A DNA stretch of 64,000 bases from Blastocatellia bacterium (GTDB lineage Bacteria; Acidobacteriota; Blastocatellia; HR10): assembly GCA_035573895.1 (NCBI GenBank), contig DATLZR010000015.1:7387-71386 (forward strand), in the 5' to 3' direction. Below are positions 1 through 14,483 of this stretch, piece after piece. How positions within the stretch are numbered: position 1 is the first letter of the stretch; every line of letters begins with the position of its first letter. A model generated the notes under the pieces. That model did not search any database. It was not told the DNA's origin and saw only the letters and a list, made by a program, of their open reading frames with translations. Position numbers and translations under genes: made by a program.

Positions 1-1066
1 CCACCGCTCCTCCCCTGGCGAGAACCCGCTCGATAGCCCGGTCGAGAAGATTGGGAGTGGCTTCGAGCGCGCCCCCGCAGTAGAGGCATGCATGAGTGGC
101 CGCGTCCAGATAGAGGGCGCCACAGGCCGTACAGACGGAGCCCTGAAGCATCGAGTTCCTCGCATACAGGAGCCGCCAGACGCGCCCCTCCGAGACCGCC
201 TGAATCGTATCCGCGGCACCGACGGTCGCATTCCCTCCTTTATGGGCCGTCGTCACCAGTTTCTCAACAAGCTCCAGCTCTCTGTTTCGCTCAGTCGCCG
301 CCTCGATTTTCTGCACCTCGGCCAGAATGTCAGATACGGACGCGGTGATGGGAACCGAGATCGTCCCCACGACGCGCGACCGCAACGCCTTCGGCAGGAC
401 TCGCTGAAGCTCGCTCACGGCTTCAACCGTCCCGCCCAGCACTAACCGATCAAAGTGATACTGAGCCGCCAGCTCGGTCAGTTTTTCGGCGACGTTCTTG
501 ACATGACCGTGAACGTGTTGATCGTGGTGCCGCTGCAGGTTCTTCTGCGACCAGAGCCGATCGGTGCTCGTGGTCACAGTTCGTCGGGGCACCTCGTCGA
601 AGACCTGATGATGTTCCTCGACGTCGCCGAGGTAGACGGTGAACAATCGCGCCCGTTCCTTATCCACCAGCACGACGCCATAGCGCTCATACTCATCGAG
701 CGCCTCGACCAGCGGCTGATAGTACGGCGCAGGAGCGAACCGCGCCACCGAGGGAAGAATGATGGGAAGATCACGATCCCACCAGAATCCCCGACGGGAA
801 TCGCTGAAGATGACCAGACTCTTCTTCCGGGGGGTGTAGTCCCGGATAAAACGGAGAACCTTTTCCCGATTCGCTTCGAATTCCGAGCGAAGATGGTTGG
901 AGATGTCCCGTTCAACCTCTTTGAGGAGCTGAGTCGCCGTTCGCTCAAATCCTCGATTGAGATTACCCGGCTTGGACTGATCCACATCAAGATAGAGGCT
1001 GAGGACGTGACCCTCGCCCTCAGGTCCGTAACGCTGGAGCATTTCCAGATCCCTGTATGAAACCAT
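1..1066 (-). CDS. baeRF/eRF1-Pelota-like protein with C-terminal CxxC..CxxC zinc ribbon. The 3' end runs off the window start.
   Basis: I translated the minus strand myself from the ATG at 1066 (MVSYRDLEMLQRYGPEGEGHVLSLYLDV...). The ORF track omits it because it is open at the edge. The central segment YGVVLVDKERARLFTVYLG resembles the eRF1/Pelota domain-2 start. The C-terminus has CTACGALYLDAATHACLYCGG. The + strand ORF 455..1060 and the - strand ORF 574..1110 are its shadows. Confidence 0.5.
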   Translation of the reverse strand, partial: MVSYRDLEMLQRYGPEGEGHVLSLYLDVDQSKPGNLNRGFERTATQLLKEVERDISNHLRSEFEANREKVLRFIRDYTPRKKSLVIFSDSRRGFWWDRDLPIILPSVARFAPAPYYQPLVEALDEYERYGVVLVDKERARLFTVYLGDVEEHHQVFDEVPRRTVTTSTDRLWSQKNLQRHHDQHVHGHVKNVAEKLTELAAQYHFDRLVLGGTVEAVSELQRVLPKALRSRVVGTISVPITASVSDILAEVQKIEAATERNRELELVEKLVTTAHKGGNATVGAADTIQAVSEGRVWRLLYARNSMLQGSVCTACGALYLDAATHACLYCGGALEATPNLLDRAIERVLARGGAV

Positions 1067-1140
1067 TGTTCCCTCCTAACGTCGGTTGCTCTGGATTCCG
1101 GAGGAGACACCGATCGGCCCGCTGGGCCGACAGGTGGTCC

Positions 1141-2679
1141 TTACTCCGATTTTTCCTTCAGCCGCTCCACCGTGAACCGCCAGTACGTCACCGGGGTGCC
1201 CGGTGGGATGCCCGCTTTGCGCAACGCCAGCTCGATCTGCCTCTCCACCGTCGTAATTCCCGGCAGATCGGGCAGGAGCAATCCCCTCCGTCCGTCGGCG
1301 CTCTCCACAATCAATCCGTAACGCGAAGGATCGAGATCGTTCGGGCCCGCGACCCGCTCCGGCGGGGACAGCACATCAACCGAAAAGACCAACCGATCGA
1401 GTTCATCAGCAGTCACCGGAGGAAATCGAGGGTCAGCCGTTGCCGCCGACACGGCATTGTGAATGACTTCCTCGACAATGGTCTTGCGCGTCGGGTGAAT
1501 CGTTCCCACGCAGCCGCGCAATTCACCGTCGCGGGTCTTGATGCTGACGAAAACGCCCGACGGGCGCGCCCATCGTCCGCTGATGGGCTCCGGAGCCGGC
1601 ATGATCTTTCCCTGAGAGAGATAATAGGCGACCGATTGCCGGGCCATAGCAGGCAGATCAATCTCCGGTTGGGCTGCTGCCGCCGGTTCAGGAGCGGGAT
1701 CCAGGCCCGGCGACGCCGCCACGTCGCTTCGTTCCGTTCGATCGCCCTCGGCGGACGGCTCCTTTGATCCATTGTCCGAAGAAGAATAGTCGGCCAGTAC
1801 GGCCGCCATGTAGCCGACGCCGAACGGACCCTCGTAGGAAAAGACCTCCGTGCGATGGAGTTTCCGGCCGATGGCGCCATAGGCGATGAGCAGCGAACGA
1901 TAGATGTCCTCGCCGGCTTCCTCCCGCAGATCGGGATCAATGGCGAGAATCTTCTCGAAATCACCTTCTCGAAGAGCGGCGACGATGGCCTCGTCATAGA
2001 GATGGGCGCGTTCGCTGAACCCTGCGGGTGCATCCGGCTTCAGCCGATGACTCATGTCTCCACTGGCACAAATGGCCAGGCGGAGGTTCAATTGTGCAGC
2101 GGCATCAGCAATCGCCTCGCCAAAGCGGACATGCTCCCTCGCGGGCAAAAAGGAGAGTCCCACCACAGCTACCTTCGATGTCCACCCCGCTTTCACCAGA
2201 TAGTAGAGTGGAACCATCGTGCCGTGATCGAGTCGCCGACCGGCGGGAATAAGCCAGAGGGGAATGTTTCGCTCCTGGCACAGAGCGGCCAGCCGAGACA
2301 GCAAGACGAGGTCATTGCTGATGGTGAACTCCACCTCCGGGGCGCCGAAATCCCAGAAGTCGCCTCGCAATCGGGGTCCACTATAGGCGCTGAATGAACG
2401 AGGATCCAGCGGTGCATGAGGACTGATGATGACGACCGTATCCGGTCCAGAAGCTACCAGCCGCTGCATCATCCGCTCAACGCCGCGGACCGTCGCCATG
2501 CACTCGGCCAACCGGTCGCCTCCGATCTCCGGGACGATAATTGGCGGATGCGGCGAGACACCGGCAAATACGACAGCCGATCTCATAGGCCTGACCTCCT
2601 TGTTGAATCTCGGCGAGCGGCCTGCACTCGAACCCCTGCACCAGCGTCGTCGGCCCCCTCCGGCGACGACCGTCCTCAT
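1141..2679 (-). CDS. Fusion protein: N-terminal LigB/Memo-like class III extradiol dioxygenase fold plus C-terminal AMMECR1 domain
   Basis: 512 aa. The N-terminal half has LigB-family motifs (VVIISPHAPL, LDHGTMVPLYYL, ICASGDMSHRL). The C-terminal part has AMMECR1 hallmarks (SGVFVSIKTRDGELRGCVGTI, DPRFPPV). Its start overlaps the ftsH stop by 4 nt. Confidence 0.65.
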   Translation of the reverse strand: MRTVVAGGGRRRWCRGSSAGRSPRFNKEVRPMRSAVVFAGVSPHPPIIVPEIGGDRLAECMATVRGVERMMQRLVASGPDTVVIISPHAPLDPRSFSAYSGPRLRGDFWDFGAPEVEFTISNDLVLLSRLAALCQERNIPLWLIPAGRRLDHGTMVPLYYLVKAGWTSKVAVVGLSFLPAREHVRFGEAIADAAAQLNLRLAICASGDMSHRLKPDAPAGFSERAHLYDEAIVAALREGDFEKILAIDPDLREEAGEDIYRSLLIAYGAIGRKLHRTEVFSYEGPFGVGYMAAVLADYSSSDNGSKEPSAEGDRTERSDVAASPGLDPAPEPAAAAQPEIDLPAMARQSVAYYLSQGKIMPAPEPISGRWARPSGVFVSIKTRDGELRGCVGTIHPTRKTIVEEVIHNAVSAATADPRFPPVTADELDRLVFSVDVLSPPERVAGPNDLDPSRYGLIVESADGRRGLLLPDLPGITTVERQIELALRKAGIPPGTPVTYWRFTVERLKEKSE

Positions 2680-4553
2680 CCCGCCGGGGGTTGTACATCC
2701 CTTTCCGAGGCGGATCCGGTCGGTTCTTCCGCCTCCTGCAGCAGTCGCATGAGTTCCGCCCGATCCAGCGTCTCCCGAACCATCAATTCCTGAGCAATTC
2801 GCACCAACGCTTTTTCTCGCTGCACAAGCAGCGACCGCGCTCGATCATACGCCTGGGCGATGAGCCGGTTCACTTCGTCGTCAATGATCTGGGCCGTCTC
2901 CTCGCTGAAATCTCGCTCCTCGGCCGCCGGCAGAGGACCGCGCAGAAACTGGCCGTCGAGCGGGCGTCCGAACGTTCGCGGTCCCAAGCGCGTGCTCATG
3001 CCGAAACGCGTCACCATCTGCCGGGCGATTTCGGTTGCCTGCTCCAAATCGTTATGCACCCCGGTGGAGGACACCCCGAAGATCAGTTCCTCCGCCGCTC
3101 GCCCGCCCAGAAGCACGGCCAGGCGATCCTCGAGTTCCGACTTGGTGTAGAGATAGCGGTCGTCCGCCGGCAGTTGCAACGTAACGCCGAGCGCTCCAAT
3201 CGAGCGAGGGATGATCGTCACCTTGTGAACCGGATCGGCATGAGGCAGCGACAGCGCCACGAGCGCATGACCAACTTCATGATAAGCGACGCGTTCTTTG
3301 ATGGCCGGAGACATGGCACGATTCTTTTTCTCCAACCCGAGCATGACGCGGTCAATCGCCTCCTCAAAGTCGCGCATCTCGACCGCCTCCGAGCCTCGTC
3401 GGGCGGCCAGAAGCGCCGCCTCATTCACGATATTGGCCAGATCGGCACCCACCATCCCCGGCGTCCGCGCCGCCAGCACGCGGAAATCCACATCGGCCCC
3501 CACGCGAACCTTTCGGGCATGGACCTTGAGGATCTCCTCACGACCGGTTATATCCGGGCGATCTACGATGATGCGGCGATCAAATCGCCCGGCCCGGAGC
3601 AAGGCCGGATCCAGGATCTCCGGTCGGTTGGTCGCCGCCATGATGATGACGCCCTTGGAGGAATCGAATCCGTCCATTTCGACGAGGAGCTGATTGAGCG
3701 TCTGTTCCCGCTCATCATGCGCTCCGATGAAGGCTCCCCCGACGGCCCGCATCTTGCCGATCGCATCGAGTTCATCAATGAAGACGATGCAGGGGGCCTT
3801 TTTCTTGGCCTGCTCGAAGAGGTCGCGGACGCGCGCCGCCCCCACGCCGACGAACATCTCGACGAACTCCGATCCCGAAATCGAGAAAAACGGAACGCCC
3901 GCTTCCCCGGCCACCGCCCGCGCGAGCAGGGTCTTCCCCGTTCCCGGAGGTCCGACGAGCAGAACGCCTTTGGGGATGCGCCCGCCCAGGCGCTGGTACC
4001 GAGCGGGACTCTTCAAAAAATCCACGATCTCGACGAGTTCAGCCTTGGCCTCATCCACGCCGGCGACGTCGGCGAATGTGACGCGCTGGTCGCTGCTGGT
4101 GTCGTAAATTTTCGCCTTGCTGCGGCCAAAGGTCAGGACGCTACTGCCCCCCTGCGCCAGCCGCCTCATGCCATAGCCCCAAATCGCTCCCAAAATCAGC
4201 AGCGGCAGCACCCAGTAGAGGAAGAACTGCTCCAGCCAGGAAGTGCGCTCAATCACCCCGGAGAATTTCACCTGCCGTTCCTGCAGTTCCTTCAGCAATG
4301 ACGTCTCTTCTATGCCGGGAAGTCGAGTGGCGACCACCAGCCGATTCCCCTCCCGGAGGCGGGCGCGAATCTCACTCTCGCCGATCCAGACCTCCGCGAC
4401 TTTGCCGCTCCGAAGGTGATCGAGAAGTTCACTGTAGGGAATCGGGTGAGGACGAGGAAAGGGGCTGAACTGCTGGAGCGAGATCAGCAGTCCCACCGTG
4501 AGGATGAGATAAAAGATGTTGAAGACCCACTTTTGTCGCGTGGTCTTATCCAT
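2676..4553 (-). CDS. ftsH: ATP-dependent zinc metalloprotease FtsH
   Basis: 625 aa. N-terminal TM helices, AAA+ Walker [31 protein letters not shown] zinc motif. Confidence 0.95.
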
Positions 4554-4715: not shown

Positions 4716-5012
4716 TTAGGCCGCCTTGCGAAACTCCGGCTGACCGAACAGCTCTTCTTCGGTGATCTCGCGTCCGGTCTCTAAATCGGGATCGGCGCTA
4801 TCAACGAGGAAATAGCGTCGGTTGCCGGGAATGCGCCGTTCGATCCATTGGCGATTGAGAACGGCCGGGACGTAAACGATCAGATCGGGATTCGAATTTT
4901 TACTCCGTCGGACTCCCAGCTCGCTATCCCAGACGGCGATATAGGTGTGGCCTCCTCGCTCGAGGGTCAGGATGTCACCGTTGGCCCGTCGCAGGATGTA
5001 ATAGGTTGCCAT
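4716..5012 (-). CDS. Hypothetical small protein (99 aa) downstream of htrA
   Basis: Internal ATG at 5012 preceded by GGAGGGGG RBS (MATYYILRRANGDILTLERGGHTYIAVWD...). The longer track ORF 4716..5201 has a low-complexity N-extension overlapping htrA. No recognisable domain. Confidence 0.4.
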   Translation of the reverse strand: MATYYILRRANGDILTLERGGHTYIAVWDSELGVRRSKNSNPDLIVYVPAVLNRQWIERRIPGNRRYFLVDSADPDLETGREITEEELFGQPEFRKAA

Positions 5013-5175: not shown

Positions 5176-6792
5176 TCAACCGCGCGGGGCGATGTCCACA
5201 TAGCCAGTGCTGCCTGAGCGCGAGAAGTAGACGCGCAGCAGGGCCCGCCGTCGCCCGACCCGCGAGACAGCCTGACGAAACGCTTCCACCGATGTCACCG
5301 GCTGCCGATTCACTTCAATGATCACGTCGCCGGGTTGCAATCCGACTTCGGCCGCGGGGCTGTCCGGGTCAATATCGCTGATGATCACACCGGTGATGCT
5401 TCGAGGAATATCAAAGCGATTGCGCAGCGAGGGCGTCAGCTCATCCACGGCGATTCCACTGAGCGTATTCCCGCTGTCATTGGATTCCGGCATGCGGCTC
5501 ACCCGCTCCGCCGGTCGCTCACCAAGCTCCACCGTCACTTTTTGTTCGCGCCCGTTACGGATGAGCGTGAGCGTCACCCGCGTTCCCGGCGGCGTCAATC
5601 CCACCATGTTTTTCAGGTGATCGGCGTCGTTGACGCGCTGTCCGTTGAACTCAATGATGACATCGCCGTTGCGGATTCCCGCGCGATCGGCCGGTCCATC
5701 CGGCACGACATTTCCCACGAGTGCTCCCCGGCGATCCTTCAACTCGAATTGCTCGACCATCCCTTCGGTCAGGTTCTGGATCTCCACTCCGAGATACCCG
5801 CGAACGACCTTGCCATACTTGAGAATGCGGTCCATCACCTCGCGGGCCATATTGATGGGAATGGCGAACCCGACGCCGGCATTGGCCTGTATGCCGCGCG
5901 TGAAGATGGCCGTGTTAATGCCGATCAACTCGCCCCGCATGTTGACCAGAGCGCCACCGGAATTCCCCGGATTGATCGCCGCGTCCGTCTGAATGAAATC
6001 GCCATACTCGGCAATTCCCAGGTTTCCGCGACCGGTCGCGCTAATGATGCCAAAGGTGACCGTTTGCTGTAACTCCCGCCGAAACGGATTCCCGATGGCG
6101 ATGACGAAATCGCCCACCTGCACCCGCGACGAATCACCCAGGGTGATGGCCGGAAGCTTCTGGGCGTCAATCTTCAGCACAGCGACATCACTTTGAGGAT
6201 CCGTTCCGACGACGCGCGCTTTGAAAACACGCTGATCGGCCAGCCGCACGGTGACCTCTGTCGCTCCCTCGACCACGTGATTGTTGGTCAGAATGTAGCC
6301 ATCCGGACTCACGATCACGCCCGATCCGAGCCCTTCCTGCGTATATTCGCGGGGTTGACGGGGAGTGCCGAAAAATCGGCGGAAGAAGGGATCGTCGAAA
6401 AAGAAATCAATCCCTTGAGATCGCACCCTTGACTTGGTCTCGATGCTGACGACGGAGTCGCGCACAGCCCGGACGACCGGGCCGAGACCTTCGGTGAGCG
6501 ATACGTTGCCCATACTGGAGCCGGAGGCCACGGGCGCACCGCTGGCGAGATAAATGGGCACGCGGGAATCGTTGCGAGGAAATGGCGCCCAGGACGTCCA
6601 CGCCGTGAGGATCGAGCCCATCACCGCACCAATGAGAAGCAGGAGAGTGACTCCCGCCCCCAGGCGCACGCGCCGATCTCTCAGCCACCATCCGGGGGAC
6701 CACCCCCGGCGACTCGAGGCAACCGTGGACCGGTCGAACTCGGCCGCAGTCGGTTGTAGCGAAGCGTCGGGTTTGACATTCATCGTTTCCAT
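5176..6792 (-). CDS. htrA: HtrA/DegP-family periplasmic serine protease with two PDZ domains
   Basis: 538 aa. TM/signal region, trypsin-like motifs GYILTNNHVVEGA and GNSGGAL, two C-terminal PDZ-like segments. Confidence 0.9.
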   Translation of the reverse strand: METMNVKPDASLQPTAAEFDRSTVASSRRGWSPGWWLRDRRVRLGAGVTLLLLIGAVMGSILTAWTSWAPFPRNDSRVPIYLASGAPVASGSSMGNVSLTEGLGPVVRAVRDSVVSIETKSRVRSQGIDFFFDDPFFRRFFGTPRQPREYTQEGLGSGVIVSPDGYILTNNHVVEGATEVTVRLADQRVFKARVVGTDPQSDVAVLKIDAQKLPAITLGDSSRVQVGDFVIAIGNPFRRELQQTVTFGIISATGRGNLGIAEYGDFIQTDAAINPGNSGGALVNMRGELIGINTAIFTRGIQANAGVGFAIPINMAREVMDRILKYGKVVRGYLGVEIQNLTEGMVEQFELKDRRGALVGNVVPDGPADRAGIRNGDVIIEFNGQRVNDADHLKNMVGLTPPGTRVTLTLIRNGREQKVTVELGERPAERVSRMPESNDSGNTLSGIAVDELTPSLRNRFDIPRSITGVIISDIDPDSPAAEVGLQPGDVIIEVNRQPVTSVEAFRQAVSRVGRRRALLRVYFSRSGSTGYVDIAPRG

Positions 6793-6892: not shown

Positions 6893-9541
6893 CTATTCGC
6901 TGGCGACCGGAGCGGCGGCCCGCTCAGTCGAAAAGACCAATCTTCCGCCGTCATAATCCACCGTGACACGGGAATTATCGCGCACCTCTCCCTGCAAGAC
7001 CAGCTTGGCCAGAGGATTCTCCAGCTCGCGTTGAATGACCCGCTTGAGCGGACGGGCCCCGAAGACCGGATCGTACCCGACGCGCGCCAGCCACTCCCGG
7101 GCGGCATCGGTCACGTGGAGCGCGATCTGCCGGTCACTCAGCCGCTGCTGCAACCGGCGAAGCTGAATCTCGACGATCTCTTTGAGATGGTCCTCGGTCA
7201 ACGCATGAAAGACGACGATCTCGTCCACCCGGTTGAGGAACTCGGGCCGGAAGGTTCGCCGAAGTTCCGCCAGAACCGTCTCCTTCATCCGCTCGTACCG
7301 ATCGCCGCTGGCGGCGCCACGATATTCGAGGATGAGATTGCTGCCGATGTTGGAGGTCATGATGATGATGGTGTTCTTGAAATCAACCGTGCGACCGTGA
7401 CTGTCGGTCAGCCGCCCATCGTCGAGAATTTGCAAGAGCAGATTGAAGACATCCCAGTGGGCCTTCTCGATCTCGTCAAAGAGGACGACCGAATAGGGAC
7501 GCCGTCGAACCGCTTCGGTCAATTGCCCGCCCTCCTCGTAGCCGACGTAGCCGGGCGGCGCTCCGATCAGGCGAGCGACCGAATGCTTCTCCATGTACTC
7601 GGACATGTCAATGCGAATGAGCGCCCGTTCATCATCGAAGAGCGACTCGGCCAGCGCGCGGGCCAGCTCCGTTTTCCCCACGCCGGTGGGACCGAGGAAA
7701 ATGAAACTGCCGATGGGCCGATTGGGATCTTTCAATCCGGCGCGCGCCCGACGCACGGCCTCGGCCACGGCGCTCACGGCTTCGTCCTGGCCGACGATCC
7801 GGCGATGCAGTTCCTCCTCCAGGCGGAGCAACTTTTGAATCTCCCCTTCGAGGAGCTTGCTCACCGGGATGCCCGTCCAGCGACTGACGACCTCGGCGAT
7901 GTCTTCCTCATCCACTTCTTCCTTGAGTAATCGCGTTCCCCCGCGCTGCTCGACCAGCTCGGTGAGGGCTTTCTCGCTCTCTCGAATCTTCCTCTCCAGC
8001 TCGACGAGTCGTCCGTACTTCAATTCGGCCGCCCGATTCAGATCATACGCCCGCTCCGCTTGTTCGATGAGGATCTTCGTCTCCTCGACCTGCTCACGGA
8101 GCTGGCGAAGATCGGCGATGATTTTCTTCTCCTGCTCCCATTGAGTTTTGAGCCCATCGGCCTGGACGCGCAATTCGGCCAGCTCTTCTTCGAGCTTGCG
8201 CAACCGTTCCCGCGAAGCGGCATCCGTCTCCCGCTTCAATCCCTCGCGCTCGATTTCCAGTTGCATGATGCGCCGGAGGATCTCGTCCAGCTCCGACGGC
8301 ATCGAGTCAATTTCCGTACGCAGCCGCGCGGCCGCTTCATCCACCAGATCAATGGCTTTATCCGGGAGAAAACGATCGGAGATATAGCGGTTGCTCAGGA
8401 CGGCGGCCGCGACCAGAGCGGAATCCTTGATCCGCACGCCATGATGCACCTCGTAGCGTTCCTTCAGGCCGCGAAGGATCGAGATCGTATCTTCAACGCT
8501 CGGCTCCCCCACGAGGATGGGTTGGAAGCGTCGCTCTAGCGCGGCATCCTTCTCGATGTACTTGCGGTACTCGTCCAGAGTGGTCGCGCCGATGCACCGC
8601 AGCTCGCCGCGCGCCAGCATGGGCTTGAGGAGATTTCCCGCATCCATCGTGGCTCCTTCCGCCCGACCGGCTCCGACGACCGTGTGCAACTCGTCAATGA
8701 ACAGGATGATCTCTCCCTGCGACTCCTGAACCTCGCGCAAAACCGCCTTGAGCCGTTCCTCAAATTCGCCGCGATACTTGGCCCCGGCGATCAATGCGCC
8801 CATGTCGAGCTGGACGACCCGCTTGTGTTTGAGCCCTTCGGGGACATCGCCTCGAATGATGCGCTGAGCCAGTCCTTCAACAATCGCCGTTTTCCCCACG
8901 CCGGGCTCACCGATGAGGACGGGATTGTTTTTCGTCCGGCGGGAGAGAACCTGCATCACCCGACGAATCTCCTCGTCCCGTCCGATGACAGGATCGAGCT
9001 TCCCCTGACCGGCTAACTGCGTGAGATCGCGCCCGTAGCGTTCGAGCGCCTGATAGGTCGCTTCGGGCGTGGGACTGGTGACGCGCTGCGTCCCGCGAAT
9101 TTGCAGCAGGGCTTTCATCAAACGATCGCGCGTCAGACCCGCCTCAGCGAGAATACGGCCCGCCGCTGTCGCTCGCCCCTCCTCCACCATGGCGAGGAGA
9201 ACATGCTCGACGCTGATGTACTCGTCGCGGAACTTCTTCGCCTCATCCTCGGCCGCCACAAACAACCGATTGAGTCGCCCCGTGAGATAAACCTGATCCG
9301 GTCCGGCGGCCGGTCCGCTCACTTTCGGCCAGCGGGCCAGTTCCTGCTCCAACCGGGTGATCACCTGAGCCGGATCAACGCCCGCCCGTTGCAGGATCGT
9401 GGGAGCCAGACCACCTTCCTGCTGCAGCAACGCGAGCAACAGATGCTCCACGTCAATGTGCTGATGGCTATAGCGAGCGGCGATCGCTTGAGCCGCACGA
9501 ATTCCATCCTGAAGCTTTTCCGTCATTCGGTTGATGTCCAT
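6893..9541 (-). CDS. clpB: Chaperone ClpB (Hsp100 disaggregase)
   Basis: 882 aa. Clp N-domain, two AAA+ modules ([15 protein letters not shown] and [15 protein letters not shown]), long coiled-coil M-domain. Confidence 0.95.
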
Positions 9542-9544
9542 AGG

Positions 9545-10483
9545 TTACTTCACCCCATTTGATCGCGGATTGAACTTCGATTCCCGAGCCAACTGCTCGA
9601 AGAGTTTCCGTTCGGCGGCCGTTGGACGCGGCGGGACGACGATCTTCACTTCGACGTATTGGTCCCCCCGGCCTCCCCGACGACGCGTCAGACCCTGACC
9701 GCGCAGCCGGAGCTTTTGCCCCGTTTGCGCTCCCGGAGGCAGACTTACCTCCGCCATTCCATCGAGCGTCGGCACGAGAATTTTCGCTCCCAGGACAGCC
9801 TCCCAGGGCGTCACCGGCACCTCCGTGTACAGATCATCGCCGGAGACTTTGAAGATGGGATGCGGCTGGAGTTTCACCCGGAGATAAAGATCGCCCGCCA
9901 TACCTCCGGCCTGTCCGCCCTGGCCGGCAAGCCGGATGACAGAACCATCGCGGACGCCCGCCGGAATCTTCACTTCCAGCGACTTTCCCGTCGGGAGCGT
10001 TAAGCGTCGCGTCGTTCCCCGATGAGCTTCTTCGAGCGAGAGTTCAATCTCCATCTCCACGTCAGCAGCGCGACTTCCCCAGCGCGTTGTTGTTGACGGC
10101 CCCGCGTGGCGTCCTGCCGGGCGACCTCGCAACCCACCAAAGAGCGTCTCAAAGAAATCGCTGAAGCCGCCGGGCATACCGGTGAAGAAATCGAAATCGC
10201 CAAAATCGAGGCGAATCCGCTCCCACCCCGGCGGAGGCGTGAACTCGCTGCCCGCTTTCCAGTTGGGGCCGAGGCGATCATAAAGCTCCCGCTTTTTCGG
10301 ATCGCCGAGGACCTCGTAGGCTTCGTTGATCTCCTTGAACTTCTCCTCCGCCGCCTTGTCACCGGGGTTAACGTCCGGATGGTACTTCCGCGCGAGCCGA
10401 CGGTAAGCCGCTTTGATCTCTTCCTGGCTGGCTGTCCGTGGCACGCCGAGGATTTGATAGTAGTCTTTGTAGGTGACGGCCAT
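9545..10483 (-). CDS. cbpA: J-domain co-chaperone, CbpA-type (DnaJ homolog lacking the Cys-rich zinc finger)
   Basis: 312 aa. N-terminal J domain (DYYQILGV...KYHPD), then Gly/Phe-like linker and two C-terminal beta domains. No CxxCxGxG repeats. Sits 4 nt upstream of clpB. Confidence 0.75.
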
Positions 10484-10571
10484 CGCCTTCGATCACCCAG
10501 CACACCGTGGTTGAGAAAGTCAACTTGTCAACAACGCCCCTCCACGCACAGGGAGAGGATCTGGCCCTTCA

Positions 10572-11054
10572 TTATCCTCGCCAGCTCAGCATCTGGATCA
10601 ACTCCGAACGAGCCAGATTCTCCTCCCGGCGAGCGGCACTCAGCTCCGCCACCGCCCGCTGGTACTGTTCCCGCAACTTCTCCGGGACACGAGGTCCGGC
10701 ATCCCGCGCCTGACAGTTCAAATCGCGGACCCGTTCGAGCGCCTCCCGGACCCGCTCGCGAGCCGCCAACAACCGCCGCATGAGACGGGCTAACACCTCC
10801 TGCCGCGTCTCGTAGCGGTAGGCAGCCTCTTCCTCCTCTTCCTCATACCCCTCTTCAGGAAGGTAGGCGGACTCCGCAGCCACTTCCTGAGCAACGGCCT
10901 GAGGCTCCTCCTCGACGTACTCCTCGACGGCTTCCTCGCCGTAGTAGTCGGCGTCGTCGTAGGGTTCGAGCGCTTCCGTGTAATCCTCGAGCGGCGCCGG
11001 TTCGACCGGTGCGACTTCCGGTTCCTCAACCTGATTTTTCTTTCGTCGTGGCAT
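10572..11054 (-). CDS. Acidic Glu/Tyr-rich protein with basic coiled-coil C-terminus (hypothetical), between dnaK and cbpA
   Basis: I chose the internal ATG at 11054 (MPRRKKNQVEEPEV...), preceded by a GGAGGG RBS. The longer track ORF would overlap the dnaK 3' end. No GrpE-like beta domain. Confidence 0.45.
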   Translation of the reverse strand: MPRRKKNQVEEPEVAPVEPAPLEDYTEALEPYDDADYYGEEAVEEYVEEEPQAVAQEVAAESAYLPEEGYEEEEEEAAYRYETRQEVLARLMRRLLAARERVREALERVRDLNCQARDAGPRVPEKLREQYQRAVAELSAARREENLARSELIQMLSWRG

Positions 11055-11085
11055 TCGTGATTTTCCCTCCTCTCTTGTTGAAATT

Positions 11086-12975
11086 TCAGTTGCTCGGCTT
11101 AAATTCGGCATCAATGACATCATCGGACGATGTGCTGGAACCGGACGATCCCGAAGCTCCCGCACCTGCCGATGTCGCTTGACTATAGGCAGCCGCTGCA
11201 ATCGCATGAGCGACCTGCTGGAGGTCGGACGTCAGTTGACGAATTCGCTCAATTCCCGCCTCCTCTTTGATGGCCTGACGAATCTGGCTGATGAGATCTT
11301 CGGCGCGAGCGCGTTCGTGAACCGGAACCTTGTCGCCCAGGTCGCGCAAAGTCCGCTCGACCTGATAGGCCAGACTGTCGGCTTGATTGCGCGCCTCGAC
11401 CAGCTCGCGCTTCCTCTTGTCCTCTTCGGCATACATCTGAGCGTCCCGGATCATGCGCTCGATCTCTTCCTTGGAGAGCTGGGTCGAGCCGGTGATGGTG
11501 ATCTTTTGCTCCCGACCCGTCGCTTTATCCCGCGCGGTCACATTGAGAATTCCGTTGGCATCAATGTCGAAAGTCACCTCGATCTGAGGGATGCCGCGAG
11601 GAGCCGGAGCGATTCCCTCCAGCCGGAACCGACCGAGCGTGCGATTGTCCCGAGCCATCTCGCGCTCTCCCTGAAGAACGTGGATGTCCACGGCCGTTTG
11701 ATTGTCCTCAGCAGTGGTGAAGATCTCCGTGCGACGGACGGGAATCGTCGTGTTCCGCTCGATGATGCGGGTCATCACACCACCGAGGGTCTCAACGCCG
11801 AGACTGAGCGGCGTCACGTCGAGCAGCAAGACTTCCTTCACCTCTCCGGCCAGGACGCCCGCCTGAATCGCTGCGCCAACAGCGACCACCTCATCGGGAT
11901 TGACCGATTGATTCGGCTCCTTGCCCAGCAGCCGACGGACGAGTTGCTGGACGGCGGGCATGCGGGTCGCTCCTCCGACGAGGATCACCTCGTCAATCTG
12001 ATTCTCGGACAATTTCGCATCGGCCAGGGCTTGCTTGACCGGTCCCACGCATCGCTCGACGAGATCGGCCGTGAGCTGTTCGAATTTCGAGCGCGTCAGC
12101 TTCATCTCCAGGTGCTTCGGTCCGTACGCATCGGCCGTGATGAAGGGAAGACTGATGGTCGTCTCCATCACCGACGACAGCTCGATCTTCGCTTTCTCCG
12201 CCGCTTCGGTCAGCCGCTGCAGCGCCTGGCGATCCTTGCGCAGATCAATGCCGTGCTCGCGCAAAAATTCTTCGGCCATCCAGTCAACGATCCGCTTGTC
12301 AAAATCGTCCCCGCCAAGATGCGTATCGCCGCTGGTGGCCTTCACCTCGAACACCCCATCTCCCACCTCCAGGATGGAGACATCGAAGGTTCCGCCTCCC
12401 AGATCGAAGACGAGGATCGTCTCGTTCTTCTTCTTGTCCAGTCCATAGGCCAATGCCGCGGCCGTCGGTTCGTTGATGATTCGCAGCACATTCAGACCAG
12501 CGATCTTGCCCGCATCGCGCGTGGCTGAGCGCTGGGCATCATTGAAATAGGCCGGCACGGTGATGACGGCATCGGTGACCTTCTCGCCGAGGTAGCGCGA
12601 CGCCTCATCGGCCAGTTTCCGCAAGACCATGGCGGAAATCTCCTCGGGGGCGTAGAGCTTGCCCATCACCTCAAACCGAACAGCATCGTTCGGCCCGGGA
12701 ACGACCTTGTAGGGGACGTTCCGAATCTCGCTGGTGACCTCGGTGTAGCGTCGCCCGATGAACCGTTTCACCGAATAGAGGGTGTTCTCCGGGTTCAAGA
12801 TCGCCTGACGCTTGGCGAGTTGCCCGACCAACCGCTCGCCCGTCTTGGTGAAGGCGACGACCGATGGCGTCGTCCGCCCCCCCTCGCTGTTGACGATCAC
12901 GGTCGGTTTTCCTCCCTCCATGATCGCCACCACGGAGTTTGTCGTTCCTAGATCAATGCCAATTGCCTTCGCCAT
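11086..12975 (-). CDS. dnaK: Molecular chaperone DnaK (Hsp70)
   Basis: 629 aa. [27 protein letters not shown], typical Hsp70 substrate-binding and lid regions. GAGGAGG RBS. Confidence 0.97.
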
Positions 12976-13024: not shown

Positions 13025-13267
13025 TCACGTCGCCCCTCGCGTCGAACGCGACTTCCGGCTCACCGGCTTCTCACTCGCGGGCCTCTCATAGGGAATTCTG
13101 TCGTGAATGAGTTCCTTGAAGGCTTGATTTATCGCCCAGGAAACTCCCGGAGCATCCTGGTGCCGCACCAACTGCTTCGCTCGCTTGGAAACGAGCGTGC
13201 AGATTAAATAGCGGCTGTCCATTTTCGCAATAGCCTCCTCGACGAGCTGTTCTCTCGTGTCAGCCAT
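13025..13267 (-). CDS. rpoZ: DNA-directed RNA polymerase omega subunit-like protein
   Basis: 80 aa. KMDSRYLICTLVSKRAKQL matches the RpoZ core (xxNRFxLVxxAAKRARQL). Strong RBS AGGAGGAG. Confidence 0.55.
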   Translation of the reverse strand: MADTREQLVEEAIAKMDSRYLICTLVSKRAKQLVRHQDAPGVSWAINQAFKELIHDRIPYERPASEKPVSRKSRSTRGAT

Positions 13268-13336: not shown

Positions 13337-13343
13337 TTATACA
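13337..13343 (-). promoter_or_regulatory. Consensus TATAAT (TGTATAAT) at the hsp20 stop codon: possible internal promoter for rpoZ-dnaK
   Basis: The minus strand reads CATGTATAATGG, overlapping the hsp20 TAA stop. A perfect -10 hexamer in a 65% GC background. The -35 candidate is weak (TTCGGA). Confidence 0.25.
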
Positions 13344-13780
13344 TGATTCCCCTCCCCAGTCCGAACCGGAATACGACGGCGTCGCTTGGGCACCCGCAAA
13401 AGCAAAATGCCATCGTTCAGCTCCGCGCTGATCCGGGTGGGATCAACATCTTCGGGAAGCAGAAAGGTCCGAGAAAAATCCCCATACGGCCATTCAATGT
13501 GACGCAAGCGCGCCTTCTGCCATGGCCCCACCAGACGGCGGCCGTCAATGGTTAACTTCCTCCCTTCAACCTTAACCTGAAGGGATTCCCGGTCAACTCC
13601 GGGAAGGTCAACCATAACGGCCATCTCCTCGTCCCCAATGAAGATATTGGCAGGAGGGGAAAATCCTGCAGTATCCGACTGCACCCGGCGCTGTGACACG
13701 CCGGCGAACCACTGATCAGTCCTCACAAGCCGTACGCTTGCGAGATCCTCGACCGGATGAATGCTCTGAACTTTGACCAT
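13337..13780 (-). CDS. Hsp20/alpha-crystallin family small heat shock protein
   Basis: 147 aa. Alpha-crystallin domain pattern (MVDLPGVDRESLQVKVEGRKLTIDG...AELNDGILLLRVPK). Confidence 0.85.
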   Translation of the reverse strand: MVKVQSIHPVEDLASVRLVRTDQWFAGVSQRRVQSDTAGFSPPANIFIGDEEMAVMVDLPGVDRESLQVKVEGRKLTIDGRRLVGPWQKARLRHIEWPYGDFSRTFLLPEDVDPTRISAELNDGILLLRVPKRRRRIPVRTGEGNHV

Positions 13781-13832
13781 CGCTCGGCACCTCTACACGC
13801 TGATCTACTTAAGCCGATCTGTAGAATAAAAT

Positions 13833-13851
13833 ATGAGTCCCATTTTGTCAA
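13833..13851 (-). promoter_or_regulatory. HAIR-like operator overlapping the hsp20 promoter (-35 TTGACA)
   Basis: Minus-strand reading TTGACAAAATGGGACTCAT. The TTGACA doubles as a -35, with a TATTCT-like -10 17 nt downstream. Lies in the AT-rich 217-bp intergenic region. Confidence 0.5.
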
Positions 13852-13933
13852 TATGAGGACGAAAATTTTCATCCCTCGAAGCCCAAACCAATGGAAGCTC
13901 TCCGATAAATAATGAAGCATTGCTCCGACTAAA

Positions 13934-13954
13934 CTTGACAAAAAGAGACTCACA
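13934..13954 (+). promoter_or_regulatory. HAIR-like operator (CTTGACA-N7-ACTCACA) overlapping the hspR promoter
   Basis: Matches CTTGAGT-N7-ACTCAAG at 10/14 positions. Near-identical to the inverted copy at 13833..13851 (TTGACAAAA.G.GACTCA shared). The TTGACA serves as a -35, with a TAGCAT-like -10 downstream. Confidence 0.5.
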
Positions 13955-13997
13955 TATTAGCATAAGGACGGCCTTTCGAGATGGGAGGTGCCAAACA

Positions 13998-14483
13998 ATG
14001 CGGGGCGTGAGCAAAAAGCGAAAAGAAAAAGGATACACCATTAGCGCCGTGGCCGAAGCCTATGGGATTCACCCTCAAACTCTTCGGCTCTACGAACGCC
14101 ATGGCTTGCTCAAGCCGTCCCGCTCCAAAGGGAATACCCGCTACTATTCGGAAGCCGACCTTCGCTCCCTGGAGCTGATCCTGACGTTGACCCGAGATCT
14201 GGGCGTCAATCTCGCGGGTGTGGAAGTGATTCTCAACATGCGGCGGAAGATGGATGCCTTACAGAAGGAAGTGCAGCGATTCATCGAGTACTTACGGGCG
14301 GAGGTTGGAGAACGATTGGCCAATCAGGCAGCCGCCAAGTTTGCGCTTGTCCCCCTGGGACAGACGCCGATAGTCACGATCGAGGAGGACCGGTCGGCGA
14401 TCTTCGAGGGAGATGCGACCCTAGTAGAGGAAGACAATCATACATCGAAAGGAGGTGAGATCTTATTAGCAAAGAAGACATGA
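13998..14483 (+). CDS. hspR: MerR-family heat-shock repressor, HspR-like
   Basis: I chose the ATG at 13998 ([40 protein letters not shown]...), preceded by a GGGAGG RBS. MerR HTH plus coiled-coil. The longer track ORF starts at 13920. The stop overlaps infA. Confidence 0.7.

Follow-up and report, generated by a model that had tools for sequence, protein, structure and literature searches.

The 64-kb stretch of DNA analysed here (the window) opens within a gene on the minus strand, and the question raised by this locus is what a protein related to archaeal release factors and Pelota does in a bacterium, at the end of a string of heat-shock genes. The first-pass annotation had postulated an unannotated gene that is open at the window start, and this was confirmed by a 355-codon open frame, a ribosome-binding site and the existence of homologues. 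The gene covers positions 1-1066 (-), with an ATG codon at 1064-1066 and an AGGAGG ribosome-binding site at 1072-1077, 5 nt upstream. Translation of the minus strand of positions 2-1066 gives a protein with the N-terminus MVSYRDLEML, the segment YGVVLVDKERARLFTVYLG at residues 129-147, VLGG at residues 209-212, and CTAC...CLYC, which provides C312, C315, C327 and C330. Database searches yielded 355 homologues at E<=1e-5, the best with 92% identity (E 2e-218), and a wider set comprised 2991 clusters at 50% identity (E<=1e-3). In view of these many homologues the gene is not a chance open reading frame, and since they share M1 and the N-terminal motif with it, the ATG at 1064-1066 is the correct start. 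Because full-length homologues have 376-381 amino acids, some 23 C-terminal residues of a protein of about 378 codons are expected to lie beyond the window; the tail can be predicted from the 92% identical homologue (P0001), which ends in EELRGPAAEKLAALGCMGAFLRF. The open reading frames listed at 88-348 (+), 92-445 (+), 455-1060 (+) and 574-1110 (-) all overlap this minus-strand frame and are its shadows. No paralogue of the protein was found in the window by tblastn.

The assignment to the eRF1/Pelota-like proteins of the baeRF type, already made in the first-pass annotation, proved right in every detail. The protein matches Pfam baeRF_family10 (PF18854) with 140.1 bits (E 7.7e-41) over 141 of the 143 model positions, the gathering threshold being 27.1 bits. 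The other Pfam families that had been named as expected matches were found as well, Host_attach just above its cut-off of 26.7 with 26.9 bits and eRF1_2 weakly, next to other baeRF families and a weak match to zf-ChsH2 that fits the zinc ribbon described below, while acVLRF1 (PF18859) stays below its gathering threshold of 27.1 with 23 bits. The best NCBIfam match is the MSMEG_1130-family ribosome hibernation factor, and the scores with the three hibernation-factor models NF052288, NF052289 and NF052287 are 83.8, 59.5 and 37 bits, to be compared to equivalog cut-offs of 480, 320 and 330; for the archaeal and eukaryotic model TIGR03676 (aRF1_eRF1) the score is 40.1 bits with an equivalog cut-off of 234.7. 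Judged by these sequence scores, the protein is only distantly related to the characterised Balons and is an equivalog of none of them.

Structure-based comparisons agree with this assignment. An AF2 model of the protein (pLDDT 87.6) retrieved Balon, aRF1, eRF1 and Pelota in a fold search, over 390-420 aligned columns and with E values of 1e-25 to 1e-8. The closest structural match is the ribosome-bound Msmeg1130 (MSMEG_1130; PDB 8v9j/8v9l), the Balon homologue of Mycobacterium smegmatis (E 1e-25, TM 0.61), followed by aRF1 and the Balon of Psychrobacter urativorans. A family profile searched against the PDB matched 24 distinct sequences, which are Balon, aRF1/eRF1 and Pelota chains; it aligned with Msmeg1130 from end to end (E 1.8e-28), and with aRF1 from the middle domain onward only (E 3.4e-10). 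The sequence of Msmeg1130, rebuilt from the PDB alignment, itself belongs to PF18854 (124.5 bits). In a phmmer search of the PDB, Msmeg1130 returned only itself, and the P. urativorans chain was not retrieved. All parts of the aeRF1-superfamily build are present: an N-domain, an RNase-H-like middle domain with an extended loop preceding a basic helix, and a Pelota-type C-domain. The protein is thus a bacterial aeRF1-like protein with three domains that falls into Pfam baeRF family 10, and its gene adds one more member to a known family rather than a system of a new kind. Its annotation should read baeRF family 10 / Balon-like protein instead of 'peptide chain release factor subunit 1', the JGI name for homologues. 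A full-text literature search for PF18854 or baeRF_family10 found no paper.

The N-terminal domain, delimited from alignments, the profile and the secondary structure of the model, comprises residues 1-113 (positions 728-1066, -). It is aligned by the family profile to Msmeg1130 but not to aRF1/eRF1, and holds the segment that the homologue alignments show to be the best conserved of all, LSxYLDVDQSKxxNLNRGFE at residues 22-41. The central RNase-H-like eRF1 domain 2, which is the baeRF_family10 region of Pfam (residues 114-254; 305-727, -), aligns with domain 2 of eRF1/aRF1, including YGVVLVDKERARLF and RLVLGG, in agreement with the earlier suggestion that a central segment and the VLGG stretch resemble the eRF1/Pelota central domain. 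The equivalent of the GGQ loop in this domain, VPRRTVTTSTDRLWSQKNLQR, spans residues 159-179 (530-592, -) according to the model, column counts and alignment. It lacks a Gly-Gly pair, has conserved D169, S173, Q174 and R179, and is disordered in the AF2 model (pLDDT <50 for residues 159-174). In the profile alignment it reads STDRLWSQ where aRF1 has KGGQS and Msmeg1130 has AGQ. Ser-Gln (S173-Q174) is present in 113-114 of 120 close homologues, and Q174 was counted in 113/120 close homologues and in 80/126 of the diverse set; within the close subfamily the loop has a constant length of 20-21 residues, and short-loop family-10 relatives carry an aRF1/VLRF-like KH..GGxSQ..QR motif. The basic helix following the loop (R179, H184, H188) and the tip of the N-domain are the most conserved parts. 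Neither of the strings NIKS and GGQ occurs in the 355 translated residues.

The C-terminal domain, an eRF1 domain 3 or Pelota-type domain recognised from the model, fold search and profile alignment, is truncated by the window edge (residues 255-355; 2-304, -). The first-pass annotation had described a C-terminal CxxC...CxxC ribbon. The motif is indeed there, in 119/120 close and 104/129 diverse sequences, and its four cysteines are invariant in 120/120 close homologues and kept in 103-110 of 126 diverse representatives; however, column counts and alignment place the Cys4 zinc ribbon (residues 309-333; 68-142, -) as an insertion into the C-terminal domain, which goes on for about 50 residues beyond it, and not as a terminal appendage. 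In the profile alignment the insert coincides with the CPNDH...CSDC ribbon of aRF1 from Halobacterium salinarum (4af1).

The gene is the last of a same-strand series in the order hsp20, dnaK, dnaJ, clpB, htrA, a small ORF, ftsH, a LigB-AMMECR1 fusion and the edge gene. The string starts with hsp20 (13337-13780, -), recognised as an ORF with homology to the Hsp20 genes of related loci. By Pfam matches, it continues with dnaK (11086-12975, -), a dnaJ/cbpA-like gene (9545-10483, -), clpB (6893-9541, -) and htrA/degP (5176-6792, -). These are followed by a conserved ORF of about 98 amino acids (4716-5012, -), noted for its conservation with baeRF10 genes, and by ftsH (2676-4553, -; Peptidase_M41, AAA and FtsH_ext). 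The adjoining fusion of a LigB (Memo-like) and an AMMECR1 domain (1141-2679, -; Pfam 142 and 148 bits, and 126.8 bits with the NCBIfam model AmmeMemoRadiSam protein A) has a start that overlaps the ftsH stop by 4 nt. The proposed neighbourhood of the edge gene with this fusion and ftsH was correct. The spacer that separates the fusion gene from the edge gene (1067-1140, -; 74 nt) holds the AGGAGG sequence, and neither an intrinsic terminator nor a sigma-70-like promoter was called in it. Since the number of terminator-like sequences over 14.5 kb equals chance level, the operon structure is deduced from spacing and synteny.

Upstream of hsp20, a motif search revealed a promoter/operator motif, TTGACAAAATGGGACTCATATTT, at 13829-13851 (-), which heads the whole string from hsp20 to the baeRF10 gene and where the promoter reads TTGACA-N6-GACTCATATTT. 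A second, divergent copy (13935-13957, +) precedes a gene for an HspR-like regulator of the MerR family (13998-14483, +; NCBIfam HspR 100.9 bits, just under the cut-off of 105), which probably starts at ATG 13998, downstream of the promoter, rather than at TTG 13920. By chance, 0 matches to the motif are expected in the window. It recurs ahead of dnaJ-clpB-ORF-baeRF10-clpP-hsp20 clusters; 30 related loci had enough upstream sequence for a scan, and 9 of them have the motif upstream of dnaJ. Across the window, the HrcA operator CIRCE gave no match, and the canonical HAIR (HspR) inverted repeat gave two matches at 3 mismatches, which does not exceed chance and is far from the cluster.

Comparison of loci from related species shows which of these neighbours are general. 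In 58 of 77 species loci, stress genes occur on the strand of the baeRF10 homologue within 6 kb, and the widely conserved neighbours are genes for Hsp20 (34 loci), ClpB (32), ClpP (29), DnaJ (27), Usp (15), the ORF of about 100 amino acids, and a fusion of HPF (S30AE) to an ECF sigma factor (4). The HPF-domain and Usp genes adjoin paralogous baeRF10 copies. The adjacency to ftsH and AMMECR1 is clade-specific, being present in 8/77 species loci. Beyond the window start, on the downstream side of the edge gene, PIG-L, CutA, HU and HIT genes are predicted from the related loci. The small ORF travels with baeRF10 genes across the family and its product is Tic22/TTHA0547-like; the copy in the window has no Pfam or NCBIfam match, and a word-index search returned only 15 close relatives. 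An Ala-Ala end resembling an ssrA degron was considered for this product and dropped, because it is confined to the window's own clade (9/39 homologues).

Among characterised proteins, Msmeg1130 is the nearest. It shares membership of baeRF_family10 and a full-length profile alignment, the absence of GGQ and NIKS, a Gln aligned to Q174, an equivalent of R179, and a C-terminal ending ...AVLRW/F, and its expression is stress-regulated (PMC10901736), as is predicted for the edge gene. On the other hand, identity is about 20%, the loop of Msmeg1130 is six residues shorter and lacks the TDxxWS segment, its ribbon site has no cysteines and only a degenerate hairpin, and the tip of its N-domain reads DPTQ where the edge protein has DQSKxxNLNRGFE. 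The P. urativorans Balon (PDB 8rd8/8rdv/8rdw) and Rv2629 belong to the same superfamily, likewise have an aeRF1-like fold of three domains (Foldseek E 9e-20 and 5e-17) and a similar stress-operon neighbourhood (PMC10901736), but their sequence similarity to the edge protein is much weaker (NCBIfam: 37 bits for AOC03_06830, 59.5 bits for the Rv2629 family). Balon is defined by an HP motif at the decoding centre, a lasso loop around A2602 and a bL27 trap (PMC10901736), and a beta-hairpin of its C-domain contacts EF-Tu(GDP) where the edge protein has an intact Cys4 zinc ribbon at the same insertion site. The ribbon is at the same insertion point in archaeal aRF1, which also has a basic helix after the catalytic loop and aligns over the middle and C-terminal domains (Foldseek E 8e-20 for 4af1). 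Pelota/Dom34 has the same fold and superfamily (Foldseek E 5e-10 to 1e-8) and would, if our interpretation holds, share with the edge protein an action without stop codon, but its N-domain is Sm-like, its loop lacks the Gln, and it clearly resembles the edge protein less than Balon or aRF1 do. The middle domain is further shared with Vms1/ANKZF1 and the VLRF-1 clade (acVLRF1), both linked to protein quality control. The Ser-Gln of the edge protein is in register with the GGxSQ of aVLRF-1/acVLRF-1 (PMC6514570), although a Gly-Gly pair, or indeed any Gly within the GGxSQ or GxuQ loop motif of that clade, is missing, as are the VLRF-specific extensions.

The best explanation, to which we assign a probability of roughly 0.55, is that the protein acts like Balon and fills the ribosomal A site when the cell is under heat or proteotoxic stress. 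The gene would be expressed together with the heat-shock chaperone and protease cluster, heat induction being predicted from this context, and the protein would enter the A site, as Msmeg1130 does, with no need for a stop codon. Its N-domain tip (DQSKxxNLNRGFE) may then be located at the decoding centre and the middle-domain loop with the basic helix (S173-Q174, R179, H184, H188) beside the peptidyl-transferase centre, whereas the C-domain, with a zinc ribbon where Balon has its hairpin, would face the factor-binding site and probably EF-Tu. Occupation of the A site, presumably unaccompanied by peptide release, would halt elongation and shield the ribosome until the stress has passed. The Pfam family shared with Msmeg1130, the end-to-end profile alignment, the best NCBIfam match and the best fold match speak for such a role. 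So do the lack of GGQ and NIKS, a lack also reported for Balon (PMC10901736), and the placing among stress genes, which holds for the gene in the window, with the HspR-like regulator and the duplicated promoter/operator motif beside the string, and for its homologues in 58/77 loci; Balon genes adjoin those for Hsp20, DnaK, DnaJ, sigma factors and RaiA (PMC10901736), and an association of baeRF with HPF was reported (PMC6514570). Msmeg1130, which was shown to bind in the A site and to inhibit in vitro translation, was described as a ribosome hibernation factor without a functional GGQ, and not as a rescue factor (PMC10901736). Against it are the missed cut-offs of all three hibernation-factor equivalog models and the low identity to Msmeg1130, the replacement of the EF-Tu-binding hairpin by the ribbon, the strong conservation of Ser-Gln together with the GGxSQ of short-loop relatives, and the immediate neighbours in the window, which handle proteins rather than ribosomes; a tblastn search of the 64 kb with an HPF-sigma fusion found no HPF gene.

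The conserved loop is what keeps an active role in the discussion. Burroughs and Aravind (2019) singled out family 10 as possibly catalytic because of its well-conserved catalytic-loop Gln, and named it a candidate peptidyl hydrolase (PMC6514570). It is possible, though in our opinion unlikely, that under heat or proteotoxic stress the protein goes into the A site on stalled ribosomes or obstructed 50S subunits, where Gln174 would hydrolyse peptidyl-tRNA or the tRNA would be cut as by Vms1/ANKZF1, after which nascent chains would be delivered to the co-encoded ClpB/DnaK/DnaJ, ClpP, FtsH and HtrA. The conservation of S173-Q174 and R179, the fixed loop length, the occurrence in related family-10 proteins of the GGxSQ motif of aVLRF-1/acVLRF-1 (PMC6514570), the disaggregases and proteases among the conserved neighbours, and the retention of an archaeal-type ribbon in a full three-domain build would fit with this. 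However, the loop has no glycine, position 167 being Ser in the motif STDRLWSQ, and in the profile alignment its Gln lies two positions past the site of the aRF1 GGQ Gln. Moreover, since the Gln in the AGQ of Msmeg1130 aligns with Q174 and this protein is nevertheless reported as a hibernation factor (PMC10901736), conservation of the Gln does not discriminate between the two roles, and paralogous copies have genes typical of dormancy as neighbours, namely HPF-domain and Usp genes. The first-pass annotation had deduced ribosome rescue or nascent-chain quality control from the proximity of ftsH and AMMECR1. This deduction needs revision, because that adjacency is clade-specific and the closest characterised relative hibernates ribosomes, but rescue or nascent-chain release stays a live, if not leading, alternative because of the conserved Ser-Gln. 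A bolder and rather doubtful version is that the zinc-ribbon, long-loop (TDxxWSQ) branch of family 10, instead of hibernating ribosomes passively, is a release or rescue enzyme of the heat-shock regulon, a bacterial counterpart of Vms1/Pelota in which Gln174 frees nascent chains from heat-stalled ribosomes; the Tic22/TTHA0547-like protein may then be a partner, and, with the same doubt, substrates would be passed to ClpB/DnaK, ClpP and FtsH.

Two further roles are very improbable. An aRF1-like, stop-codon-dependent alternative termination factor used under stress would be in line with the three-domain architecture and the aRF1-type ribbon, and the possibility was raised for full-length baeRF proteins (PMC6514570), but the N-domain has no detectable aRF1/eRF1 similarity, profile alignments starting only at residue ~113, the motifs NIKS, YxCxxxF and GGQ are absent, and the TIGR03676 score is far from its cut-off; different from aRF1, the edge protein comes from a bacterium, where termination of the RF1/RF2 type operates alongside it (PMC6514570). 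Equally hard to accept is a protein that lost its ribosomal role and now serves the chaperones and proteases encoded nearby as an adaptor or regulator that senses zinc or redox state. The invariant Cys4 site and the close linkage of the gene with those for ClpB, ClpP and FtsH and with the Tic22-like small ORF are circumstantial indications for it, whereas the most conserved parts, the basic helix and the N-domain tip, are those by which aeRF1-type proteins contact the ribosome, and binding to the ribosomal A site is common to all members of the superfamily that have been characterised.

All that experiments have taught about Balon-type factors was learned from three proteins, each of which has lost the zinc ribbon. 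The gene described here belongs to the larger and uncharacterised branch, in which two archaeal features are retained, a Cys4 ribbon at the site that presumably faces EF-Tu and a conserved Ser-Gln loop, and in Acidobacteriota this zinc-ribbon branch forms part of a heat-shock cluster of the HspR type. From this placement it is predicted that blockade of the A site or release of nascent chains is a regular arm of the heat-shock response. Whether the Gln of family 10 is catalytic is a question that dates from 2019 and was not settled by the Balon structures, and the protein, which is probably thermostable, would be a tractable candidate for addressing it.

The minus-strand gene at the window edge (1-1066), proposed in the first-pass annotation as an eRF1/Pelota-like protein, is a real gene. 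Positions 2-1066 form a single open frame of 355 codons without a stop up to base 1, and 355 homologues were found at E ≤ 1e-5, the best with 92% identity (E 2e-218). An exhaustive HMMER scan yielded 2991 clusters (50% identity) at E ≤ 1e-3 and 351 at E ≤ 1e-30. The ORFs 88-348(+), 92-445(+), 455-1060(+) and 574-1110(-) are indeed shadows of this frame, and the segments quoted earlier are all present in the protein (YGVVLVDKERARLFTVYLG, residues 129-147; VLGG, 209-212; CTAC...CLYC, 312-330). Translation starts at the ATG at 1064-1066 (N-terminus MVSYRDLEML), with AGGAGG at 1072-1077, 5 nt 5' of the start. Homologues of 376-381 aa share this start, which confirms the start codon and implies that some 23 residues lie beyond the window edge; in P0001, the full-length homologue with 92% identity, this tail reads EELRGPAAEKLAALGCMGAFLRF.

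The anticipated kinship with baeRF-type proteins was borne out by Pfam, in which baeRF_family10 (PF18854) matched strongly (140.1 bits, E 8e-41), followed at lower scores by baeRF families 2, 12, 3 and 5, Host_attach and acVLRF1, while eRF1_2 reached only E 0.027. The top NCBIfam match was the MSMEG_1130-family ribosome hibernation factor (83.8 bits, cut-off 480), and the Rv2629, aRF1_eRF1 and AOC03_06830 (Psychrobacter Balon) families followed, also below cut-off. With scores so far under these cut-offs, the protein does not qualify as an equivalog of any Balon characterised so far. Used alone against PDB sequences, it found the hibernation factors Balon/Msmeg1130 at E 4e-9, and a profile built from 115 family members aligned Msmeg1130, the Mycobacterium smegmatis Balon homologue, end to end (E 1.8e-28), with further matches to aRF1 (4af1; 3.4e-10), eRF1 (about 1e-9), Pelota (3e-8) and Rv2629 (1e-5). 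An AlphaFold2 model was built for the full-length 92% homologue, whose residue numbers are identical and which shows no indels; it gave a pLDDT of 87.6 with disorder confined to residues 159-174. Its top Foldseek match in the PDB was ribosome-bound Msmeg1130 (E 1e-25, TM 0.61), followed by aRF1 (E 8e-20), P. urativorans Balon (E 9e-20), eRF1 and Pelota/Dom34, each match spanning some 390-420 aligned columns. Msmeg1130, its sequence reconstructed from a printed alignment and verified against the PDB chain, scores 124.5 bits with the baeRF_family10 model, which places the window protein and a characterised Balon homologue in one Pfam family. Together with EF-Tu(GDP), Msmeg1130 binds the ribosomal A site, and translation is inhibited in vitro (PMC10901736). 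The window protein belongs to the aeRF1 superfamily and, within Pfam, to baeRF_family10; it is not aRF1/eRF1, Pelota or VLRF-1.

The zinc ribbon noted earlier is present, but inserted within the C-domain and not at the C-terminus. Its cysteines (C312, C315, C327 and C330) are invariant in 120/120 close homologues, and 104 of 129 diverse representatives have a CxxC...CxxC motif. In the alignments the four residues coincide with the CPNDH...CSDC ribbon of H. salinarum aRF1 and, in Msmeg1130, with a hairpin free of cysteines; the insert is therefore the ancestral aRF1-type ribbon. The degenerate two-strand insert at the same site in many baeRF families is consistent with this reading (Burroughs and Aravind, PMC6514570). 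In Balon, the hairpin at this site contacts EF-Tu (PMC10901736).

The baeRF10 gene closes an unbroken string of minus-strand genes: hsp20 (13337-13780), an 80-aa ORF (13025-13267), dnaK (11086-12975), an acidic ORF (10484-11085, within ORF 10572-11207), a dnaJ/cbpA-like gene (9545-10483), clpB (6893-9541), htrA (5176-6792), an ORF of about 98 aa (4716-5012), ftsH (2676-4553) and a LigB+AMMECR1 fusion (1141-2679; 512 aa with a LigB/Memo-like domain), whose first 4 nt overlap the 3' end of ftsH and which is followed by baeRF10 after a 74-nt spacer. The 80-aa ORF shows sub-threshold weak similarity to RNA polymerase omega (RpoZ) and is conserved beside hspR in two related loci (L014, L015). The acidic ORF (roughly 160 aa, probable start MPRRKKNQ..., coiled-coil-like C-terminus) has no Pfam match and occupies the place where grpE might be expected. 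In NCBIfam, the fusion matches AmmeMemoRadiSam system protein A at 126.8 bits and gives only a faint signal for protein B.

Divergent from hsp20 lies a gene for an HspR-like MerR regulator (100.9 bits, cut-off 105). The intergenic region (13781-13997) holds two divergent sigma-70-like promoters, both containing the 23-nt motif TTGACAAAANNNGACTCAYATWT (chance expectation 0 matches), as TTGACA-N6-GACTCATATTT at 13829-13851 (-) and 13935-13957 (+). Neither CIRCE nor a canonical HAIR repeat was found in the window. Among the 30 loci with long enough sequence upstream of dnaJ, nine, all from Blastocatellia, carry TTGACA-N6-GACTCATATTTTAT about 90-155 nt upstream of this gene, at the head of dnaJ-clpB-ORF-baeRF10-clpP-hsp20 clusters, and two additional loci have the same motif at hspR (L005:3630-3647, L021, L023, L029, L032, L034, L049, L062, L067, L014 and L015). 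The HspR-like repressor probably uses this motif as its operator, which differs from the canonical HAIR repeat.

In the closest relatives, Acidobacteriota hot-spring MAGs such as HR10 and HR08, the order dnaJ-clpB-htrA-ORF-ftsH-LigB/AMMECR1-baeRF10-PIG-L-CutA-HU-HIT is kept; the clpP-hsp20 type of cluster occurs in about 30 Blastocatellia species, and baeRF10-Usp and baeRF10-Hsp20 are further arrangements. A count of same-strand neighbours up to 6 kb away, made in 77 species-representative loci, gave a small ORF (34), Hsp20 (34), ClpB (32), ClpP (29), DnaJ (27), Usp (15), FtsH, LigB-AMMECR1 and HtrA (8 each) and an HPF-sigma fusion (4), with at least one stress gene in 58. The adjacency to ftsH and AMMECR1, taken earlier as a clue to function, exists in the window, but according to these counts it is confined to a single clade; more widely, baeRF10 is associated with the heat-shock and general stress regulon, in agreement with Balon genes, which neighbour Hsp20, DnaK, DnaJ, alternative sigma factors and RaiA (PMC10901736), and with the reported baeRF-HPF linkage (PMC6514570). 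In one arrangement an HPF(S30AE)-ECF-sigma fusion and a zf-HC2 anti-sigma gene lie directly upstream of baeRF10. The fusion (L006:6724-8004, L016:4657-5888, L018:5506-6763, L057:8899-9882) has about 330 aa, with an N-terminal Ribosomal_S30AE domain above the Pfam threshold and an ECF sigma factor, an uncommon tie of a hibernation-factor domain to transcription control; in at least three of the four loci the anti-sigma gene comes next and a zinc-ribbon baeRF10 gene immediately downstream. Two MAGs, J050 (L014, L016) and 356-308 (L015, L018), each have two such paralogues, one in an hspR-dnaJ-htrA-ORF-LigB/AMMECR1 cluster and the other in an ftsH/HPF-sigma/anti-sigma cluster.

On the observed family, fold, motifs and gene context, we consider it somewhat probable (about 0.55) that the gene encodes a Balon-type factor, produced alongside the heat-shock proteins, which pauses translation and shields the ribosome; by analogy, it would work most like Msmeg1130 and Balon. 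Upon heat induction it would enter the ribosomal A site without needing a stop codon, with the tip of the N-domain at the decoding centre, the loop and basic helix next to the peptidyl-transferase centre, presumably without hydrolysis, and the zinc-ribbon face of the C-domain toward the factor-binding site and EF-Tu. The N-domain (residues 1-113) aligns with Msmeg1130 and not with aRF1/eRF1, whose alignments begin at about residue 113. Conservation within the protein peaks here, in the segment LSxYLDVDQSKxxNLNRGFE, where S23, Y25 and N35 do not vary and Q30, R38 and F40 hardly do. This N-domain, without NIKS, and the absence of GGQ make a stop-codon-dependent termination factor very improbable, and equally little is to be expected of a role as non-ribosomal adaptor.

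An active release or rescue enzyme is the less likely main alternative. The middle domain has the eRF1 domain-2 fold with VPRRTVTTSTDRLWSQKNLQR at the GGQ site. A Ser-Gln pair is conserved in this loop (S173 in 114/120 close homologues and 87/126 diverse representatives; Q174 in 113/120 and 80/126), R179, aligned with the conserved Arg of the helix after the loop in aRF1, is kept in nearly all homologues, and loop length is fixed at 20-21 residues in the close set and bimodal (15-16 vs 19-21) in the diverse one. Many short-loop relatives carry KH..GGxSQ..QR, resembling aRF1 and VLRF-1 motifs, so that family 10 includes both release-factor-like and Balon-like loops; carriers of KH..GG(x)SQ..QR include the representatives P0177, P0206, P0212, P0241 and P0259 (compare aRF1 PGKQRKGGQS and VLRF-1 GGxSQ). 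Release activity would also fit the 2019 prediction made for family 10 and the neighbouring protein-quality-control genes. However, the loop of the window protein has no glycine (position 167 is Ser), and the GGQS of aRF1 aligns with its xxWS, which puts Q174 two positions past the canonical Gln. Furthermore, the short loop of Msmeg1130, reported as non-releasing, has this Gln as well, its AGQ aligning with S-Q174.

What sets the protein apart is its intact zinc ribbon and its conserved Gln. For the family as a whole, both were reported in 2019 (PMC6514570), and the setting in stress operons followed in 2024 (PMC10901736). A full-text search of the literature found no mention of PF18854 by name. 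To our knowledge, no zinc-ribbon member of baeRF family 10 has been studied experimentally. The interest of the protein lies in the question whether its Gln is catalytic and in how tightly the gene is integrated into an HspR-type heat-shock cluster.
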